NCBI GenBank assembly: GCA_934098485.1
Contig: CAKOOH010000005.1
Span: forward strand, 11,617 to 75,616
From: an uncultured Bacilli bacterium
GTDB lineage: Bacteria > Bacillota_I > Bacilli_A > RF39 > UBA660
Reading direction: 5' to 3'
Length of the DNA: 64,000 nucleotides
The notes beneath the pieces were generated by a model that saw only the letters and a program-made list of their open reading frames with translations, was not told the origin of the DNA and did not search any database. This document shows, one piece after another, positions 6,357 through 13,587 of the stretch (position 1 is the first letter of the stretch; each line of letters opens with the position of its first letter). The position numbers and the translations under genes were made by a program.

Positions 6357-6497
6357 TGAGTGCTAGAGAAGAATTCCTTCTTTTAGACAAAGAATTTCAA
6401 AAATCAAAGAAAAAATCTAAACTTGAGACTAAAGTATATGATAAATTAAGATTAGAATTATTAAAATATGAAAGTGAAGAAAATCTTCCCCATTAAA
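6357..6497 (+). CDS. Possible small protein (46 aa, MSARESFLLLDKEFQKSKKKSKLETKVYDKLRLELLKYESEENLPH)
   Basis: Short ORF read directly from the sequence (coordinates are my own count, accurate to within a base or two). It is downstream of an extended -10 (TGGTATAAT at about 6266-6274). No homology is recognised. Confidence 0.25.
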
Positions 6498-6525
6498 TAA
6501 GAATTAATAAATAAGAGGTGTTTTA

Positions 6526-7548
6526 ATGTATACAATAATTGATTATTTAAAATTTTATAGTAATGCTTCATTGAATGAAGTTAAATGGAATAATATTGAT
6601 AATCTAATGGCATCCATTATAGTTTATTTACCAGTTCCATCATTTAAAGAAAATAAAAGCATAAAAGAATTATCTGATTATACTACAAAAAATGAAGCAG
6701 ATATTCGTGGTTTCACGGAAACAAAAGCGGTCGAAATATTAAATATTATTAAAAATAGTAAAAGATATAAAAATATTACTATTTCTAACTTTATTAATAT
6801 TAAAAATGAAGACTCACAATTTGGTGCTTGTATCATCAAAACTGATCAAGAAAAAATTATTAGTTTTAAAGGTACTGATCGCTCTTTAATTGGCTGGCTT
6901 GAAAACTTTAGACTTATGTATGAATATCCCACTTATACCCAAAATCTAGCCATTAAATATCTAAATGATAATATATCTTTTATGGATAAAGATATTTATG
7001 TAGTTGGTCACTCTAAAGGTGGTAATCTTGCAATGGCAAGTGCCATGGAACTATCTGATTCAAAATTTAATAAGATAAAAAAAGTTTGTAATTTTGATGG
7101 GCCAGGATTTAAAAAACAAGAATATGAAAGTAAGAAATTTAAAAGATTAAAATCAAAACTCTTAAATGTCATTCCGACCGGATCCATTATTGGTACTATT
7201 CTTTATAATGATAACTATAAAGTTGTTTCAAGTAATGAATATGCTTTTGATGAACATCATCCAACATCATGGAAACTATTTGGTCAATACTTCGTCGAAG
7301 GTAAATTATCAGCCATCAGTAAACAATTTCATAAAAATACATCAGATGGATTAGAAACCCTAGATAAAGAAAAACTTAAAAAGACTATTGAAACAAGTTT
7401 TAAAAGTTTTGAAAAAGAATATTCAAGTGATTTTACCTCAATTTCCTTTAATGACATTAAAAACGTTTATACAAATATGAAAAATGTCGATCCCGAAATA
7501 AGAGATTATTTATTAGTTTTAATGGAAGAATTAATAAAATATTCATAA
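6526..7548 (+). CDS. Lipase-like alpha/beta hydrolase (DUF2974/Mbeg1-like)
   Basis: Nucleophile elbow GHSKGG (VVGHSKGGNLAMASAMEL). No signal peptide. Confidence 0.6.
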   Translation: MYTIIDYLKFYSNASLNEVKWNNIDNLMASIIVYLPVPSFKENKSIKELSDYTTKNEADIRGFTETKAVEILNIIKNSKRYKNITISNFINIKNEDSQFGACIIKTDQEKIISFKGTDRSLIGWLENFRLMYEYPTYTQNLAIKYLNDNISFMDKDIYVVGHSKGGNLAMASAMELSDSKFNKIKKVCNFDGPGFKKQEYESKKFKRLKSKLLNVIPTGSIIGTILYNDNYKVVSSNEYAFDEHHPTSWKLFGQYFVEGKLSAISKQFHKNTSDGLETLDKEKLKKTIETSFKSFEKEYSSDFTSISFNDIKNVYTNMKNVDPEIRDYLLVLMEELIKYS

Positions 7549-7663
7549 CTCGTTATTCTAGGGTAGCTATAGATTTCTAACTTAAAAAAATCATAATTTA
7601 CAAAATAATATAATTGTGTTACATTATTAATGTAAATTATTTAAAGAAAGGAGTGAGATTAAT

Positions 7664-7729
7664 ATGAAAAATTTACAAGTTATAAATAATGCAGAATTAA
7701 TCGCAACTCCTAACTTATTAAACTTTTAG
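7664..7729 (+). CDS. 21-aa upstream ORF (MKNLQVINNAELIATPNLLNF), a candidate leader peptide
   Basis: Strong ribosome-binding site AAAGGAGTGAG 7 nt upstream of the ATG. The ORF overlaps segment 1 of an alternative-pairing RNA structure. Confidence 0.3.
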   Translation: MKNLQVINNAELIATPNLLNF

Positions 7730-7755
7730 GAATATTCTTTTATGATAATAAAATT

Positions 7756-7782
7756 AATTCTGTATTATGCAGAATTTTTTTG
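7756..7782 (+). terminator. Intrinsic terminator/attenuator hairpin (AATTCTG-tattatg-CAGAATT + T7)
   Basis: 7-bp stem, 7-nt loop and a U-tract. Its 5' arm can alternatively pair with AATGCAGAATTAAT inside the upstream small ORF. Confidence 0.5.
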
Positions 7783-7797
7783 TTAGGAGGATTTTAA

Positions 7798-8247
7798 AAT
7801 GATAATAAAATTAAATTTTATGATAGGGCTGCTCTAGCTATAAAAAATAAAACAAAGAAAGTAGAAATTAGAGCAAATAAAGATAATAAAGAACATGATT
7901 ATAGTAAATTAAAAGAAAATGATATTATAGAGTTTAACAGTAAGAATTTAGGAATATTTTATGTAAAAGTTAAAGAAGTAAATCATTATGAAACACTTGA
8001 GGAATTATTTACTTTAGAAGGAACAAGATATACAACTTCATCTACTAATAATAAGGAAGAAGCAATCAAAAATGTAAGTAAATTAGATGGATATGAAGAT
8101 GCTATTAAGAAAAATGGCGTATACGCTGAATATGTTTTAGTAAATGTATTTGCTTATAATGAAAAAGCGATTAGATTTTATGATAGGCATGGATATCATT
8201 CAAGAATGTATACAAATATAAAGCAAATAATGAAAGATGGATTATAA
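7798..8247 (+). CDS. ASCH-domain protein (GxKxxExR-like motif KTKKVEIR) whose ORF lacks an in-frame canonical start. It is either expressed through a -1 frameshift from the ATG at 7799 or is a pseudogene.
   Basis: Stop-to-stop ORF of 149 codons with an ASCH-like N-region (FYDRAALAIKNKTKKVEIRANKD). A strong ribosome-binding site AGGAGG and the ATG at 7799 are in the +1 frame, which terminates after 12 codons. The heptamer A_AAT_TTT at 7813-7819 bridges the two frames. Confidence 0.5.
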   Translation, partial: NDNKIKFYDRAALAIKNKTKKVEIRANKDNKEHDYSKLKENDIIEFNSKNLGIFYVKVKEVNHYETLEELFTLEGTRYTTSSTNNKEEAIKNVSKLDGYEDAIKKNGVYAEYVLVNVFAYNEKAIRFYDRHGYHSRMYTNIKQIMKDGL

Positions 8248-8304
8248 TGATTATAATTAAAGAATTAAAAAAATACTTTTTTACATATTATAATAGGAGA
8301 AGTA

Positions 8305-10209
8305 ATGAAAATAATTGAATTAAAAGAAGCAAAAAATAATTGTGGTGGCAAAGCCTATGGATTATATAGGCTAATACAAGCAGGTATAAATGTACCTGAA
8401 GGATTTGTTATTGAAGACTCACAATCATTATCAAACGAAAATATTTCTGAATTAGAAAACAGATTAAAAGAATTAGATAAAAATGATAAATTAGCAGTTA
8501 GATCTTCAGCATCTAATGAGGATGGAAATATAAAATCATTTGCTGGAATCTTTGAAACAGTATTAAACGTCAAAAATGATATCAATGATGTTACAAAATC
8601 TATTAAAAAAGTAAATGATAGTGCTAATACTGATAAAACCAAGAATTATTCGAACAACAATTTCCAAATGAATGTCGTAGTGCAAAAAATGATAAACCCT
8701 AAAATATCAGGTATATGTTTTACAAATGTAATTGATTTCTCTGGTAAAAGATGTGTTATGTTTGAATATGTACAAGGAATTGGAGAAACATTAGTTAGCG
8801 GTAAATCAAATTCAAATAGAATAATTGTTAAATATAATAATGATAAATTAGATTATAACCATGCTAGATTAGAAGGAAGTTTAATAAACTTTACTGGTTT
8901 TGAAGCATTATGTAATTTGATAACTAAAGCAATTAACAACTATGATAAAAATCTAGATATAGAGTGGTGTATAGATGAAAACAATGTAGCATATTTATTA
9001 CAAGCAAGACCCGTAACAAAAGAAATATTTATTGAAAAGAGTAGTGATAGTAATAATACAAATACAATAGTTGCATCAAGAGGATGTGTTGAAGCCGAAA
9101 CATATGTAATTGATTCGAATTTAGACTATGAAAAAGTAAAATATGAAATAGAAAATTTTCCTGAGAATAAAATTTTAGTTTGTGATTATACAGAAACATA
9201 TTATCTTCCAGCAATGAAAAAAGCAAAAGGAATAATCACAAATACAGGCTCAGCTTTATGTCACGCGGCAATAGTATCAAGAGAATTAAACATCCCATGT
9301 ATTGTAGGATATGATAACGCAACAACAAAATTTAAAACCGGAACTCTAATCAAATTAGACGCTAATAACAACTCAATTTCTATAGGAAATGAAAACATGT
9401 TAGTATCAAAGGAATATAAATTAAACTTTGGAGAACTTGATTGTTTTGATAATTACATTGAAATTGTGATAGATAATACAAAGATATTTATCGAAAATAC
9501 ATTTGACGGAATATATGTTCATAAACCAGATAGATTAACTAATTCGGAAATTAATGAAATTGAAAAATTTGTTAGAAAAACATTTGGTCAAGTAGCAATA
9601 TTTTCATCAGATGAAAATAAATACTTATGGATTAAAGAAGTAAATCGTTTTCATAAATTACCTTATTTTTCAAAATATTATGAACATGTAAAAGATAGTG
9701 CAAAAAATTTTAATGAATCGAAATTAACTAAAATTCAAAAAAATTTAATTACAATGGCAAGCCAATATTTAACATATAAAAAGACATCAAAAGATACAAT
9801 ATTAAATATTTTTATAGATGAAATTATCGCGTCAATAAATGAAATATTAGATGGAATAATCCCCTTTGGATATCCTATGTATGAATCTTATGTTCAATCA
9901 TTACAATTATTAGAAAAAGAAGGAAAAACATATAATGATTTATTTGGACATATTTTATTTAAAAATGAAAAATTAATAAAAATTCAAAATTTCTTACACG
10001 CAGTTTCAAAAATAAAAGACGAAAGCTATCAAATTGTATGGGATATGGGAGGAAATGATCCGGATTATTTTGAAAAAAGAGATGAAAAAGTAAAACAAAT
10101 ATTAAATAAAAATAATCTTGACGAAGATTTTATGGACATATTTTATGAATTTTATCTTCCTAAATACTATGAAAAATTATTGGAGATAGTTGAAGAAAAC
10201 GAATTATAA
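8305..10209 (+). CDS. PEP-utilising enzyme family dikinase/phosphotransferase-like protein. It has an N-terminal PPDK_N ATP-binding region, a central mobile His domain and an unassigned C-terminal domain of about 300 aa.
   Basis: N-terminus GGKAYGLYRL...VPEGFVI matches the PEP synthase/rifampicin phosphotransferase ATP-grasp signature. The central NTGSALCHAAIVSRELNIPCIVG matches the PEP-utilisers phospho-His motif. Confidence 0.7.
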   Translation: MKIIELKEAKNNCGGKAYGLYRLIQAGINVPEGFVIEDSQSLSNENISELENRLKELDKNDKLAVRSSASNEDGNIKSFAGIFETVLNVKNDINDVTKSIKKVNDSANTDKTKNYSNNNFQMNVVVQKMINPKISGICFTNVIDFSGKRCVMFEYVQGIGETLVSGKSNSNRIIVKYNNDKLDYNHARLEGSLINFTGFEALCNLITKAINNYDKNLDIEWCIDENNVAYLLQARPVTKEIFIEKSSDSNNTNTIVASRGCVEAETYVIDSNLDYEKVKYEIENFPENKILVCDYTETYYLPAMKKAKGIITNTGSALCHAAIVSRELNIPCIVGYDNATTKFKTGTLIKLDANNNSISIGNENMLVSKEYKLNFGELDCFDNYIEIVIDNTKIFIENTFDGIYVHKPDRLTNSEINEIEKFVRKTFGQVAIFSSDENKYLWIKEVNRFHKLPYFSKYYEHVKDSAKNFNESKLTKIQKNLITMASQYLTYKKTSKDTILNIFIDEIIASINEILDGIIPFGYPMYESYVQSLQLLEKEGKTYNDLFGHILFKNEKLIKIQNFLHAVSKIKDESYQIVWDMGGNDPDYFEKRDEKVKQILNKNNLDEDFMDIFYEFYLPKYYEKLLEIVEENEL

Positions 10210-10639
10210 CTTATCAATCACAAATAAAAAATGAAGAAGAAAATTTTTGGTATAATATAAGAAGTATGAATTTACAATTGATTCAACTTTTAGTTTCGCC
10301 AATTAAGCCACTTAGACTATTTATTAAAATATAAAACATTGTATATTAAATTTGGACAGCATCTTTAATATTGATACTGTAATACCATCTAATTTAACTA
10401 AATCATCTTATTATGCTATTTATACCAGAAATGCCCAAAGTGATGATTATACTAATTTAAATTGTTATGTTTTTTACTATTCTAATAAAGCAGGTGATAA
10501 AAATATCCGAGTAGCTTTTTCCAATAATGGCACTCCAATAAGGGACTATCATTTTGATGAAAGTAGTGCGAAAAACTCAAATATTAATAATCATGATTTA
10601 TTAATTTATCAGTATAAAGGCATTATCAAATAATAAAAA

Positions 10640-10670
10640 AAGTAGTTAATTAGTTTTCTACTTTTTCTTT
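10640..10670. terminator. Bidirectional terminator hairpin (AAAGTAG...CTACTTT) between convergent ORFs
   Basis: Inverted repeat flanked by an A-run and a T-run. Confidence 0.4.
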
Positions 10671-10888
10671 TTTTTCGCTTTTAATTTGGCAATCGCATTT
10701 CGAACAAACTGCGCTTGGGTTAATCCTTCTTCTGCAAGTAACATATCAAGTTCTTTCTTTTCTTCTTTTTTTAAATTAATTTTAAGTGGTGAATAATGTT
10801 TTTTCTTATATTCATTTATATACTCATTTTGATTAAATTTCTTTTTTTCGTCTTTAGCCATTTTTAAATCTTCATCCTTTCTTTTCAT
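10658..10888 (-). CDS. Small ribbon-helix-helix (CopG/MobC-like) DNA-binding protein
   Basis: Lys-rich N-tail followed by LTQAQFVRNAIAKLKA, as in RHH proteins. The start is uncertain (the M at 10888 or 10861; the track extends to 10918). The 5' end lies inside the 53-bp direct repeat. Confidence 0.45.
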   Translation of the reverse strand: MKRKDEDLKMAKDEKKKFNQNEYINEYKKKHYSPLKINLKKEEKKELDMLLAEEGLTQAQFVRNAIAKLKAKKKKK

Positions 10889-10929
10889 AAGTATATCACA
10901 TTGGGAGGGTAGTGTCATTAAAATAATAA
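10877..10929. repeat. 53-bp perfect direct repeat, copy 1 (copy 2 at 12620-12672), bracketing the AbiE cassette
   Basis: Identical 53-nt string CTTTCTTTTCATAAGTATATCACATTGGGAGGGTAGTGTCATTAAAATAATAA at both positions. Confidence 0.9.
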
Positions 10930-11048
10930 CATCATGGATTGAAACAAAAGGATAAATTTAATATCACTACTAAAAAATAGTTTTTAAAAAGAGTAATTTT
11001 ATATTTAAAGTTTTTTTAATGAATGTGAGGTAAAAAAAGTTTTCAAGT

Positions 11049-11076
11049 ACACTTAAATGTGATAAAATTTAAGTGT
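11049..11076. promoter_or_regulatory. Perfect 10-bp inverted repeat ACACTTAAAT-n8-ATTTAAGTGT overlapping a TGTGATAAAAT -10-like element, a candidate AbiEi autorepressor operator
   Basis: Palindrome read directly, 16 nt upstream of the AbiEi start. Confidence 0.4.
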
Positions 11077-11091
11077 GAAAGGAAAAACGAT

Positions 11092-11679
11092 ATGGAATAT
11101 GAAAATAAAATTTTAAATTTATTTAAAAATGGTTATTTAATTACTAAAAATGTTACCGATAATAATATTCCTAGGATTTACCTTACTAAACTTATTAAAG
11201 AAAATAAAATAGAAAGAGTAAGTCGTGGAGTATATATTAAAAAGAATGTTTTAGTAGATGAATTTGTCGTATTACAAAGCAAAAGTAAATATGCCATTTA
11301 TTCTAATACAACAGCACTTTATTTACATGGACTTTCTAATAGAATTCCTATTAGATATGATATTACAATTAAAAGTGGGTATAAAGGTTCACTTCAAAAA
11401 GAAGATAATGTTAATTTATTTTATACAAAAAACGAATTATTAGATTTAGGAGTTATTAACTATAAACTAAATTCCGGTAATATTATTAAAGTTTATGATT
11501 TAGATAAAACTATTTGTGACATTATTAAAAATAAAAAGAAAATAGATGCAGAAATTTTTAATAAAGCTATTAGAGAATATTTTTATAGTCAAAAGAAAAA
11601 TACTTTAAAACTATATGAATATGCTAAAAAGATGAATATTTATAATAAGGTAAGAGATACTTTCGAGGTGCTTCAATGA
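11092..11679 (+). CDS. abiEi: AbiEi-family antitoxin/transcriptional regulator (type IV TA, abortive infection)
   Basis: N-terminal wHTH with the AbiEi-typical ...RVSRGVYIKK motif. The 4-nt ATGA overlap with the downstream toxin gene is typical of a TA operon. The ATG at 11092 has the ribosome-binding site AAAGGAAA. Confidence 0.7.
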   Translation: MEYENKILNLFKNGYLITKNVTDNNIPRIYLTKLIKENKIERVSRGVYIKKNVLVDEFVVLQSKSKYAIYSNTTALYLHGLSNRIPIRYDITIKSGYKGSLQKEDNVNLFYTKNELLDLGVINYKLNSGNIIKVYDLDKTICDIIKNKKKIDAEIFNKAIREYFYSQKKNTLKLYEYAKKMNIYNKVRDTFEVLQ

Positions 11680-12527
11680 TTAAAAATAGGGATAGTTTAA
11701 AAGCAAGAACGTCTAATTTAGCTAATAAAACTAATATTCCTAATAAATATTTAATTCAAAGCTTTATGTTTGAAGCTTTATTAAAAAGAATATCAATTTC
11801 TAAATATAAAGATAAATTTATAATTAAAGGTGGCCTCTTATTATCATCTATCTTTGGTGTAAACTTAAGAAGTACTATGGATTTAGATACCACTATAAAA
11901 GGATTATCACTGGATAGAGAAACCATTATTAAAGTTATTAATGATATTATTAGCATTGAAATAGACGATAATATCAAAATTGAAATAGAAAATATTAAAG
12001 ATATTAGAGAAGAAGAATTATATTCGGGTTTTAATGTCAATTTAAAAGCCGAATTCGATGGTTTGAAAACTAATTTAATGATTGATATAACTACAGGAGA
12101 TGTTATTACTTATAAAGAAGTTGAGTTTAAATATAATACCTTATTTGATAATGAAATCATCAATATTATGACTTATAATTTTGAAACTATACTAGCAGAA
12201 AAATTTGAAACAATAATTAGCAGAAATATAGATAATACTAGAATGAAAGATTATTATGATTTATATATGTTTGTTAATTTAAAATGGGATGATATTAATA
12301 AGGATACTTTAAGAAAAGCAATTATAAACACCGCTAAAAATCGTAAAACTTTAGATTACATAGATAATGCTAGTAAATATATAGAATTAATTAGTGATGA
12401 CTCAAGATTAAAATCTCTTTGGAATAGTTATAAAAGTAATTATGATTATGCAAAAAATATAGAGTTTGAAGATACAATATATGCTATTAAAACAATTGGC
12501 AAAATTGTTACATCAGTCGGAATTTAA
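11676..12527 (+). CDS. abiEii: AbiEii/AbiGii-family nucleotidyltransferase toxin (DUF1814)
   Basis: FIIKGGLLLSSIFGVNLRSTMDLDTT matches the GG...R.T.DLD nucleotidyltransferase signature of AbiEii. It is translationally coupled to AbiEi. Confidence 0.75.
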   Translation: MIKNRDSLKARTSNLANKTNIPNKYLIQSFMFEALLKRISISKYKDKFIIKGGLLLSSIFGVNLRSTMDLDTTIKGLSLDRETIIKVINDIISIEIDDNIKIEIENIKDIREEELYSGFNVNLKAEFDGLKTNLMIDITTGDVITYKEVEFKYNTLFDNEIINIMTYNFETILAEKFETIISRNIDNTRMKDYYDLYMFVNLKWDDINKDTLRKAIINTAKNRKTLDYIDNASKYIELISDDSRLKSLWNSYKSNYDYAKNIEFEDTIYAIKTIGKIVTSVGI

Positions 12528-12619
12528 GTGGTAAAAAGTGAAACTGGCTAAGAAAGAAACTAAAAACAACCTTCGAATATAAAAAACATATCATAAAATT
12601 AAAGAAGAAACGTAATCTT

Positions 12620-12672
12620 CTTTCTTTTCATAAGTATATCACATTGGGAGGGTAGTGTCATTAAAATAATAA
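12620..12672. repeat. 53-bp direct repeat, copy 2, carrying a 20-codon remnant of the RHH gene 5' end on the minus strand
   Basis: Identical to 10877-10929. Minus-strand translation gives MTLPSQCDILMKRKKITFLL*. Confidence 0.9.
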
Positions 12673-12774
12673 TGTAGTAATTTTAAAGTATATATATTAT
12701 TAATATAATGAAAAATACTAAGAATCATGGTATAATATTTCTAATTTAATTTGATAAATAAAGGAGGTATTTAA

Positions 12775-13587
12775 ATGGAAGAAATAACCTATAATAAAGT
12801 TGAAGATGAAAAAAGCCCCAAAATAAAACAGTTATATTGGGATATTGCCTTTGGTCTTCAAGACGTAGATGGATTAAAGCCATCTAAATATATGATTGAA
12901 TTATCAAAAGAACATATAAATGGGCAAAAAACGTATCATGAGGTTAAAGAAGAAATTACCTCTTATTATAAGATAAATTATGATAATCATGCTGACGATG
13001 ATGAAGAAGAAGCTGATGAAGTTTCTATCGCAATATACCAAATACTTAATAATAAATCTTTTAGATTTGATTATTTAACTTTAAAAAATTATCATCAAAG
13101 ATTATTTTGTAACTTAAATAAAGAAAAATATAATCCGGGCGTTTTTAGATTGTATAACATAACTAAAGACGAGCCAATTTTAAATGGTGATACAGTAAAC
13201 TATCAATCTTATGATATGATTGAAGAAACTTTAAAATATGATTTTAATGAAGAAGCGGCTCAAAATTATCTTGAGTTTACTGAAGAACAATTAATAAATC
13301 GTATTTGTGAGTTTACATCTAGAATATGGCAAGTACATCCTTTTCAAGAGGGTAATACAAGAACTACAGCTATTTTTATTCAAAAATATTTAAATAGCAT
13401 TGGATTTAAAGTAAACAACGAATTATTTAAAGATAATTCCCAATATTTTAGAAATGCTTTAGTAAGAGCAAATTACACAAATTATAGTAAAGGCATAAGT
13501 GCTGATACCAAATTCCTAAAAATGTTTTTTGAAAATTTATTATTATATAAAAATAATGAATTAAATAATGATGATTTAAAAATATAA
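12775..13587 (+). CDS. Fic/Doc-family protein with a degenerate active-site motif (HPFQEGNTRTT instead of HxFx(D/E)GNGRxxR)
   Basis: The Fic core motif is recognisable but with G-to-T and a missing second Arg. An extended -10 TGGTATAAT and the ribosome-binding site AAAGGAGG lie upstream. Confidence 0.65.
   Translation: MEEITYNKVEDEKSPKIKQLYWDIAFGLQDVDGLKPSKYMIELSKEHINGQKTYHEVKEEITSYYKINYDNHADDDEEEADEVSIAIYQILNNKSFRFDYLTLKNYHQRLFCNLNKEKYNPGVFRLYNITKDEPILNGDTVNYQSYDMIEETLKYDFNEEAAQNYLEFTEEQLINRICEFTSRIWQVHPFQEGNTRTTAIFIQKYLNSIGFKVNNELFKDNSQYFRNALVRANYTNYSKGISADTKFLKMFFENLLLYKNNELNNDDLKI

Follow-up and report, generated by a model that had tools for sequence, protein, structure and literature searches.

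PpsA and PPDK are built from an ATP-grasp domain, a phosphohistidine swivel domain and an acceptor domain, the last being a PEP/pyruvate TIM barrel at the C-terminus (PF02896). The PEP-utilising superfamily also includes RPH and the prodigiosin ligases PigC/RedH, whose ATP-grasp and swivel-histidine machinery serves a secondary metabolite instead of pyruvate; RPH and PigC have the acceptor-binding domain in the middle and the swivel domain at the C-terminus. Natural-product or capsule biosynthesis involves two further PPDK-like kinases, the phosphoramidon/talopeptin dipeptide N-kinase TalE and the L-glutamine kinase Cj1418, whose targets are a peptide amine or an amide nitrogen (PMC6482885). 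TalE, Cj1418 and RPH are precedents for non-pyruvate acceptors in the superfamily. A PEP-utilising dikinase is not mentioned in the searched reviews of ThiF-type RiPPs, and full-text searches on the combined terms were likewise empty. Here, we analysed a 64-kb stretch of DNA from an uncultured Bacilli bacterium (hereafter the window) that carries a dikinase gene whose decisive context is invisible in the window alone: the gene belongs to a family of RiPP-like clusters and has been orphaned.

The ORF at 8305-10209 on the plus strand is real and encodes a product of 634 aa, with the following parts:

8305-10209, plus strand: PPDK-like dikinase gene, orphan copy (PPDK_N and PEP-utilizers matches, homologues, intact in six strains)
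8305-9039, plus strand: ATP-grasp nucleotide-binding domain, aa 1-245 (PF01326, invariant residues, Foldseek)
9157-9369, plus strand: phosphohistidine swivel domain, aa 285-355 (PF00391), with the His320 codon at 9262-9264
9388-10206, plus strand: family-specific C-terminal domain, aa 362-634, presumed to bind the acceptor (AF2, database negatives, rarity, invariant residues)

The initial annotation had described a PEP-utilising dikinase with an ATP-grasp N-terminus, which is confirmed by Pfam matches to PPDK_N (PF01326; E 4.3e-36, 125 bits, cut-off 27) and PEP-utilizers (PF00391, aa 285-355; E 4.8e-23, 81 bits, cut-off 23.1). Foldseek with the ATP-grasp domain retrieved PPDK, RPH and PpsA, and the N-terminal domain also matches the NCBIfam model NF004508 (E 2.5e-28), which we take to be possibly the Cj1418 model. 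Approximately 77 homologue clusters align with the dikinase over its full length at 32-100% identity, and this homology, which includes the C-terminal domain, places it in the cluster-dikinase family as defined in this analysis. The ATP-grasp residues G14, G15, K16, R66, S67, S68, E72, D73, D218, E220, Q233 and R235 are unvaried across the family, as is H320 in 49 sequences, where it lies inside GSAL(C/S)HAAIVSRE; the window copy retains every family-invariant residue. K16, R66, D218/E220, Q233/R235 and the His motif GSALCHAAIVSRE are conserved between PpsA/PPDK and the dikinase. The product is a His-swivel dikinase of the PEP-utilising superfamily, the dikinase chemistry itself being predicted.

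PpsA and PPDK provide the top sequence and structure matches for aa 1-360, and their domain order is that of the dikinase. The swivel domain is indeed central, as the initial annotation had pointed out, but this is the normal PpsA/PPDK order; the oddity is that the PF02896 barrel is replaced by an unrelated domain of 273 aa. A central-metabolism PEP synthase or PPDK with a divergent C-terminus would fit the N-terminal hits and the shared order. However, the dikinase has no Pfam match to PF02896, Foldseek matched the model of its C-terminal domain to neither PPDK nor PpsA, its family is linked to RiPP-like clusters, and its scores lie far below the cut-offs of the NCBIfam equivalogs (NF005057, a PpsA model, 176.7 against 598; TIGR01418, 171.4 against 739.75; TIGR01828, a PPDK model, 45.3 against 843.45). 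An assignment as PpsA/PPDK was therefore rejected, and we regard a central-metabolism enzyme as extremely improbable, in agreement with the earlier exclusion of central metabolism.

An assignment as RPH was rejected as well, because the RPH domain order and the rifampin-binding domain are absent and the score against the RPH equivalog NF041857 is low (115.7 against a cut-off of 999). PDB matches of the dikinase to RPH are limited to the ATP-grasp and swivel parts, Foldseek of the C-terminal domain model found no match to the RPH structures 5fbs and 5hv1, and the acceptor domains of RPH and PigC show no similarity to the C-terminal domain. Equivalog scores (NF052631, 169.3 against 1300; NF052632, 148.3 against 1350) and architecture led us to reject PigC/RedH. 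TalE and Cj1418 offer a precedent for a peptide-derived acceptor (PMC6482885), their sequence relationship to the dikinase being that of the shared catalytic domains; the substrate of TalE is a dipeptide made by an ATP-grasp enzyme and not a ribosomal peptide. A secondary-metabolite phosphotransferase, as first proposed, remains the best reading of the dikinase.

The C-terminal domain (273 aa) is uncharacterised and rare, and sits where the pyruvate-binding end of a PEP synthase would be. AF2 predicts a small beta-sheet with a helix module, followed by a helical bundle (pLDDT 90.5, pTM 0.88). That this region could not be assigned to a known domain holds: aa 362-634 have no match in Pfam, NCBIfam, PADLOC or PDB sequences, and the Foldseek search proposed with the initial annotation gave no match for the model in PDB or BFVD. 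A profile search of 1.84 billion proteins yielded 88 representatives, all sharing one architecture. Residues R424, K439, E506, G522 and Y614 are invariant in the domain and present in the window copy. The order of secondary-structure elements in its first part might be read as that of an RRE (PqqD-like), the three-strand, three-helix winged-helix module by which some RiPP-modifying enzymes bind the leader peptide, but hhalign against the N-termini of ThiF-like proteins was not significant. We presume that the domain binds the acceptor.

In relatives at 33-89% identity, the dikinase gene is linked to a gene cluster (loci L004-L009, L013, L014, L096-L099, L101, L103 and L105). There it is the first enzyme gene, directly after a gene for a conserved 29-aa peptide ending in C-x-x-H-R-S; the peptide is conserved in eight loci and is found upstream of the dikinase in L004, L007, L009, L096, L098 and L100-L105. 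Downstream lie genes for rSAM-SPASM, ThiF-like, cytoplasmic SBP_bac_5-like, PLP-dependent and ABC-F proteins, and the cluster of one clade also encodes an M3-like peptidase. The ThiF-like enzyme carries an N-terminal extension of ~100 aa, and the ABC-F protein is of the ribosome-protection type, scoring above the NF000355 cut-off. The clusters of relatives showed no exporter gene. This locus has the appearance of a previously undescribed RiPP-like cluster from gut Bacilli. Its likeness to the ThiF-like/rSAM RiPP clusters (microcin C, pantocin A and streptococcal grc) consists in the short precursor and the ThiF-like and rSAM-SPASM enzymes, the same elements that are combined in the streptococcal grc cluster (PMC12596934). 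The window, in contrast, has none of the partner genes of such clusters.

The surroundings of the dikinase gene in the window comprise the following features:

6526-7548, plus strand: Mbeg1-like alpha/beta hydrolase gene (PF11187, E 1e-54), a conserved upstream neighbour in orphan and cluster-bearing strains
7665-7781, plus strand: 21-codon ORF (MKNLQVINNAELIATPNLLNF) with a strong RBS, then a hairpin and T-run at 7756-7781 (sequence, ORF list of the identical L001 region, repeat D5)
7798-8247, plus strand: pseudogene joining the N-terminal part of an ASCH-deaminase to the C-terminal ~40 codons of a GNAT gene (translations, comparison with L001/L106)
8259-10232, plus strand: the one stretch near the gene with homology to cluster-linked relatives (L096 and L105, blastn)
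10233-13587, no strand: replacement DNA where relatives have cluster genes (Pfam, PADLOC, repeats, no similarity to L096)
10352-10633: 93-aa ORF within the replacement DNA
10658-10918, minus strand: RHH/RepB-like gene within the replacement DNA
10877-10929 and 12620-12672: 53-bp direct repeats flanking AbiE
11059-12527: AbiEi/AbiEii, within the replacement DNA and between the direct repeats
12775-13587: Fic gene within the replacement DNA

Homology of the window to L096/L105 is restricted to 6462-7548 and 8259-10232. The second segment starts 46 nt before the ORF, ends 23 nt after it and is 91.4% identical to L096/L105 (blastn), where its equivalent is preceded by the peptide gene and followed by the rSAM-SPASM gene. 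Similarity to L096 was not found beyond 10232. The gene for the 29-aa precursor is absent upstream of the window dikinase, the matching region being replaced, and the linked ThiF-like, SBP_bac_5-like, ABC-F and (rSAM) genes are absent from the 64-kb window, in which tblastn with the cluster proteins hit the dikinase, a generic ABC ATPase and nothing else. The 21-codon ORF at 7665-7781 is unrelated to the cluster precursor peptide. The window copy is an orphan: its precursor gene and every partner gene have given way to other DNA or been deleted, and the breakpoints lie no more than ~50 nt from the ORF. A second orphaning is seen in another species, where L003 and L098 have flanks that are 99% identical; L003 lacks the 206-nt peptide region and 6.6 kb spanning rSAM to ABC-F, and the ORF is intact between the two deletions. 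At least two independent orphaning events have thus occurred. L010 and L012 form an orphan clade, and L102 retains the peptide and the enzyme alone.

The initial annotation had taken 6526-10209 for an AT-richer accessory island. The region is strain-variable and slightly AT-richer, but it looks like a patchwork more than a unit, and a coherent horizontally acquired island is not supported. The proposed composition check shows that the five genes in 6526-13587 have a GC content of 21-25%, compared with 28.9 +/- 3.4% for the other 40 ORFs (dikinase gene, GC 25.0%, GC3 13.9%); the shift is real but mild, and several genes in other parts of the window match it in AT content. No integrase was found in 6-14 kb of the window, and parts of the region vary independently between strains. 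The Mbeg1-like gene (94% aa identity to its L096 counterpart, which lies ahead of peptide, dikinase and rSAM) and the dikinase gene hold the same relative positions in L096, a related strain with the full cluster, and the material between and after them has been swapped piecemeal. AbiE, which had been placed immediately next to this region, is separated from the dikinase gene by the 93-aa ORF and the ribbon-helix-helix gene, and its cassette is a variably present segment of 1.69 kb between the 53-bp direct repeats.

These data bear on the proposal of a horizontally acquired antibiotic (e.g. rifamycin) phosphotransferase or an AbiE-linked defence enzyme within one accessory island. The membership of RPH in the same superfamily, the mild AT-richness and variability of the region, and the nearby AbiE and Fic genes, the latter encoding a match to the PADLOC candidate PDC-S72, would be consistent with it. 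Against it stand the RPH comparison above, the lack of a PADLOC match for the dikinase, the absence of AbiE from the sister strains L106 and L107, which keep the dikinase gene, and the vertical history of the locus, beside the same Mbeg1-like gene in a cluster-bearing strain; plasmid or phage relatives were searched for and not found. We consider this proposal very unlikely, and neither the rifamycin nor the defence part of the original suggestion is upheld.

The orphan ORF is under purifying selection while the adjoining ASCH-deaminase/GNAT genes decay. All six orphan alleles are full-length and intact, with dN/dS among them of 0.08-0.19 at 8-26 substitutions per pair; dN/dS is 0.17 between the window and L096, and 0.09 between L003 and L098. 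A non-functional relic of a decayed cluster, not yet hit by inactivating mutations, would explain the loss of the precursor and partner genes and the visible decay of the surrounding DNA. It would also fit the promoter search, in which no specific promoter was identified, since the frequency of promoter-like sites does not exceed that in shuffled sequence. However, selection on the six alleles and retention of all invariant residues argue against a relic, as do the 90% cluster of 55 members (634 aa in each of the 15 members listed), the same precise and independent retention in L003, where two deletions lie beside an intact ORF, and the persistence of the L010/L012 clade down to 58% identity. 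A relic is accordingly judged quite unlikely. The dikinase could also be a biosynthetic enzyme whose peptide, ThiF, rSAM and other partners are encoded elsewhere in the same genome. The tblastn search covered the 64-kb window, which leaves room for such partners, and a biosynthetic enzyme would fit both its location directly behind the precursor gene in relatives and the L102 pair of peptide and enzyme. On the other side, the clusters of a sister strain and species (L096, L098) are contiguous at exactly this locus, and splitting by two tight replacements with re-creation elsewhere is unparsimonious and would be needed twice. This explanation seems unlikely, if a little less so than a relic.

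We lean towards an orphaned, still selected cluster dikinase with a stand-alone role, in which acceptor, chemistry and role are proposed as follows. If the dikinase works like PpsA, PPDK and RPH, its ATP-grasp domain would bind ATP, the beta-phosphoryl group would pass to His320 on the swivel domain with release of AMP and Pi, and the swivel domain would then donate this group to an acceptor bound by the C-terminal domain, which stands in for the PEP/pyruvate TIM barrel. Because the dikinase heads a RiPP-like cluster in relatives, its natural acceptor is most likely the 29-aa precursor ending in C-x-x-H-R-S or a matured derivative. The orphan copy may work alone on the cluster product of neighbouring strains, inactivating it as an immunity-like phosphotransferase or serving as a salvage/activation kinase. 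More tentatively, the family may represent a new RiPP-tailoring class in which the C-terminal domain binds the C-x-x-H-R-S peptide or its product, and the orphans may phosphorylate and inactivate a translation-targeting product as resistance or immunity enzymes. If true, human-gut Bacilli would maintain producers and immune-only strains as alternative states of a single locus. As with orphan immunity genes of bacteriocin loci, one chromosomal locus holds either the full cluster or a single retained gene; this polymorphism is seen in two species, and purifying selection acts on the gene that is kept. Unlike a typical immunity protein, however, the retained dikinase resembles a biosynthetic enzyme, and the obvious resistance candidate of the clusters is the ABC-F gene, which the orphans have lost. 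The gene's location immediately behind the precursor gene, like the peptide-enzyme pair of L102, points to biosynthesis more than to immunity, and a secreted antibiotic with immunity is weakened as a scenario because exporter genes were not seen in the clusters.

The neighbouring ASCH-deaminase and GNAT genes are found in three different lesion states. L106 has both genes intact, encoding a 251-aa ASCH/dCMP-deaminase and a 165-aa GNAT protein, whereas the pseudogene at 7798-8247 arose by an 859-bp deletion relative to L106. L001, L002 and L095 carry a different deletion of 294 bp in this region. The frame at 7798-8247, previously listed as an ASCH-domain ORF, is a frameshifted deletion fusion whose ASCH match falls below the Pfam cut-off (16.6 against 21.2 bits); it spans 149 codons and has no start, because 1 nt is missing, compared with L001, after codon 6 of the reading frame that begins with the ATG at 7799.

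The enzyme studied here is a PPDK-like dikinase encoded by the following ORF:

8305-10209, + strand, dikinase, 634 aa

The protein matches Pfam PPDK_N (E = 4e-36), which confirms the ATP-grasp N-terminus recognized in the initial annotation, and a PEP-utilizers phosphohistidine domain follows at residues 285-355 (E = 5e-23). This swivel domain does lie mid-protein, as had been stated, but it is not the anomaly it was taken for, since the swivel domain of PpsA and PPDK is normally central. The anomaly is instead that the C-terminal PEP/pyruvate TIM barrel of PpsA and PPDK has been replaced by another domain. The NCBIfam models matched by the dikinase (PpsA, PigC/RedH and RPH) cover only its first ~370 residues and score far under their curated cut-offs (176.7 against 598, 169 against 1300 and 115.7 against 999, respectively). 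No PADLOC model matched the dikinase, and its PDB sequence matches (PpsA, RPH, pyruvate kinase and Enzyme I) end at around residue 370. Using Foldseek with an AlphaFold2 model of the full-length protein (pLDDT 85), PPDK, RPH and PpsA were matched via the N-terminal two domains only. Among 49 aligned full-length homologues (31-89% identity), G14, G15, K16, R66, S67, S68, E72, D73, D218, E220, Q233 and R235 are invariant in the ATP-grasp domain and His320 in the swivel domain. Every family-invariant residue is present in the window dikinase, which has a three-domain architecture with all catalytic-type residues. Full-length homologues fall into ~77 clusters, none of them named, with gut metagenomes or "Bacilli/Firmicutes bacterium" MAGs as their source. 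A contig scan with the full-length alignment was uninformative on the family, its patterns being drawn from the generic swivel motif; 80 of 80 loci were ordinary PEP-utilising enzymes whose match was confined to residues 1-430 of the dikinase.

Past residue ~360, no Pfam match was found. The C-terminal 279 aa alone gave no NCBIfam match, and a profile of the region run against PDB sequences, together with Pfam scans member by member, returned only noise, in agreement with the initial annotation, which could not assign this region and had proposed a Foldseek check. In the AlphaFold2 model of residues 362-634 (pLDDT 90.5, pTM 0.88), a sheet of three to four strands with helices precedes a long-helix bundle; Foldseek with this model gave no match in the PDB (best E 0.19, TM <=0.25) or in viral structures. 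When 1.84 billion representative proteins were searched exhaustively by HMMER using the C-terminal profile, 88 were recovered. Full-length matches are 590-735 aa long with the domain at the C-terminus; PPDK_N and the swivel domain were also present in the 3 long and 6 of 7 short matches scanned, the short ones being N-truncated fragments. Across the 49 homologues, R424, K439, E506, G522 and Y614 are invariant in this region, and E420, W442, E445, R448, F563, Y588 and R592 nearly so. The C-terminal domain is real, conserved, rare and confined to this architecture. Sequence evolution is faster in the C-terminal than in the N-terminal half of the protein, equally so among copies linked to the gene cluster described below. 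The domain begins strand-strand-strand-helix, an order that we take to resemble the secondary structure of RiPP recognition elements (RREs); an RRE relationship, sought by hhalign between this domain and the N-terminal extension of the ThiF-like cluster protein, was not significant.

In relatives, the dikinase gene belongs to a RiPP-like gene cluster:

L004-L008 and L103 (43% identity): rSAM, M3-like peptidase, 29-aa ORF, dikinase, ThiF-like, PLP-decarboxylase-like, unknown 401-aa protein, SBP_bac_5-like, ABC-F
L009 and L097-L099 (64-70% identity): 29-aa ORF, dikinase, rSAM-SPASM, ThiF-like, SBP_bac_5-like, aminotransferase, ABC-F
L013 and L014 (33% identity): ABC-F, dikinase, ThiF-like, SBP_bac_5-like
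Cluster spans: L004, 4872-16106; L009, 7851-16394; L098, 8782-17312

Both the length and the sequence of the 29-aa ORF are conserved (e.g. MLKFIKSLFSKKLDKNDLELLAICETHRS, MVKFLKRVFRKKSDLTDKQLLASCCVHRS and MIKFFRRVFSKRSELTDKQLLTNCCIHRS), and it ends in C-x-x-H-R-S; in L009 and L105, also a cluster-bearing locus, a hairpin and T-run separate it from the dikinase RBS. The rSAM proteins are similar to SPASM peptide maturases, the ThiF-like protein carries an N-terminal extension of ~100 aa, the SBP_bac_5-like proteins have no signal peptide, and the PLP enzymes are either decarboxylase-like or GntC-like aminotransferases. The M3-like peptidase is confined to one clade. The ABC-F is of the ARE type and exceeds the NCBIfam cut-off for ribosomal-protection-like ABC-F (470.9 vs 380 bits); no cluster protein reached the cut-offs for named systems. 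Reviews of ThiF-type RiPPs make no mention of a PEP-utilising dikinase, and a full-text literature search for the dikinase superfamily combined with a ribosomal-peptide pathway found nothing relevant. The cluster bears the hallmarks of an undescribed pathway of RiPP-like, or peptide-scaffolded, type in gut Bacilli, and to it belongs this rare family of PEP-utilising dikinases, whose presumed acceptor domain is novel. A PEP-utilising dikinase scaffold fitted with a previously undescribed, presumed acceptor domain is now linked to a peptide natural-product cluster, so far uncharacterised, of uncultured Bacilli from the human gut. At L010/L011 (3928-12852), a distant family member with 35% identity lies beside TyrRS, a TrpRS-like paralogue and a MetRS/CysRS-like paralogue, with two Peptidase_S51 genes, a 41-aa ORF and a PfkB-SIS fusion, and with archaeal-type SAM synthetase and thermosome genes nearby; here the enzyme family may serve a different pathway.

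The window copy is an orphan of this cluster, kept by selection. Using tblastn with all cluster proteins against the 64-kb window, the dikinase alone was recovered. As the partner search spans this window only, the pathway may be unlinked, with partners elsewhere in the same genome. The nearest cluster-linked relatives of the window dikinase, L096 and L105 (85-89% aa and 91.4% DNA identity), also carry the upstream Mbeg1-like gene (94% aa identity to that of the window), followed by a promoter, peptide gene and terminator in ~200 nt, the dikinase and rSAM-SPASM. Homology of the window to these loci is limited to 6462-7548 (the Mbeg1-like gene) and 8259-10232, i.e. from 46 nt upstream to 23 nt downstream of the dikinase ORF. 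The peptide-gene position is occupied by a 21-codon ORF with a hairpin, plus an ASCH/GNAT remnant, and the rSAM-to-ABC-F position by a 93-aa ORF, an RHH gene, AbiEi/AbiEii and Fic, and then asnS. The 21-codon ORF at 7665 was considered as a candidate precursor and rejected, as it has no resemblance to the conserved 29-mer.

We next consider whether the orphan is a neutral relic of the lost cluster. Between orphan and cluster-linked dikinases, dN/dS is 0.17 (window vs L096) and 0.09 (orphan L003 vs cluster-linked L098). In the window species, six of six orphan alleles are intact at 634 codons, with pairwise dN/dS of 0.08-0.19 (e.g. 16 synonymous vs 10 non-synonymous changes). The adjacent genes provide an internal control. 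In strain L106, the genes for ASCH/cytidine-deaminase (251 aa) and GNAT (165 aa) are intact (8634-9943), whereas in the window (7798-8247) an 859-bp deletion fuses the two and a 1-nt frameshift is added, so the ASCH-domain ORF of the initial annotation does not stand as a gene; an additional deletion of 294 bp is present in L001 (9786-9989), L002 and L095. The pair is thus found in three allelic states of decay in one species while the dikinase beside it stays intact, which argues against a neutral relic. Promoter-like sites were not commoner than in shuffled sequence in a promoter/terminator scan, which is therefore silent on dikinase expression. At 7665-7814, the 21-codon ORF (MKNLQVINNAELIATPNLLNF) has a strong RBS and is followed by a hairpin and T-run (7756-7781), and the ASCH gene has its RBS and start region duplicated through an imperfect direct repeat of 32 nt (7726-7757 and 7783-7814); this segment could be a leader-peptide attenuator of the decayed ASCH-deaminase/GNAT operon.

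Orphaning occurred independently in a second species. L098 has the order AsnB, peptide, dikinase, rSAM, ThiF, SBP5, aminotransferase, ABC-F, rpsF, whereas L003, with flanks 99% identical, has AsnB, dikinase, rpsF; both the peptide region (206 nt) and 6.6 kb of downstream DNA are absent from it. AsnB was discarded as a functional link to the dikinase, as L098 shows that it just flanks the cluster insertion site. Despite these flanks, the dikinase genes are only 93.5% identical (L003 9987-11931 vs L098 8904-10846), and dS is 0.26 for the dikinase and 0.06 for the adjacent asnB, suggesting that the two states are old alleles, not a recent deletion, or were exchanged by recombination. L102 keeps only the peptide and dikinase of the cluster, between rbgA and rnhB. 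This minimal module (8714-12076; precursor peptide, dikinase and a 359-aa predicted multi-pass membrane protein) splits the normally adjacent rbgA(ylqF)-like GTPase gene and rnhB, and a type III restriction enzyme gene adjoins it. Orphans are nested within cluster-linked clades. Stand-alone copies also make up a clade further off, with L010/L011 and L012, which share 58% identity.

By analogy with PpsA, PPDK and RPH, the ATP-grasp domain would bind ATP, His320 would be phosphorylated with release of AMP and Pi, and the swivel domain would ferry the phosphoryl group to an acceptor held by the C-terminal domain. Gene linkage points to the 29-aa peptide or a matured derivative as the putative acceptor. 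TalE and Cj1418, of the same superfamily, phosphorylate peptide or amide nitrogens (PMC6482885). Recurrent precise retention and purifying selection suggest that orphan copies act alone, and their target is most plausibly the cluster product that related strains release in the communities they share; Hadza gut metagenomes are the source of both L001 (orphan) and L105 (cluster-bearing). The stand-alone role may be inactivation, i.e. immunity-like, or salvage or activation. The immunity version is weakened, as the clusters showed no exporter gene, orphans have lost the ABC-F, which is the natural resistance candidate, and the position of the dikinase within the cluster looks biosynthetic. The less likely case of an unlinked pathway elsewhere in the genome, beyond the 64-kb window, weakens it further. 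Repeated precise retention after cluster loss yields a testable hypothesis of a new phosphorylation-based immunity/resistance mechanism or a salvage step, for which L096 and the window strain, and L098 and L003, are natural matched pairs.

The initial annotation placed the dikinase in an AT-richer accessory island; its observations were largely right with corrections, and its interpretation partly so. The five genes in 6526-13587 have a GC of 21-25% and GC3 of 12-15%, against 28.9 +/- 3.4% and 17.9 +/- 3.0% in the rest of the window (~28% GC overall). The shift is real but modest, and several other window genes are equally AT-rich. Rather than forming a single unit, the stretch is a patchwork: synteny with a cluster-bearing relative holds for the Mbeg1-like gene and dikinase, and the ASCH/GNAT remnant, AbiE cassette and remaining genes vary independently between strains. 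No integrase was found at 6-14 kb of the window, and no family member on viral contigs or plasmids. The AbiE cassette (AbiEi/AbiEii, 11059-12527) occupies 1.69 kb between perfect 53-bp direct repeats (10877-10929 and 12620-12672); strains L106 and L107 have a single repeat copy and lack the 1.69 kb, indicating gain or loss through an event involving the repeats. Unlike AbiE, the Fic-domain protein (12775-13587), a match to the PADLOC candidate defence family PDC-S72 (E = 5e-80), is kept in both.
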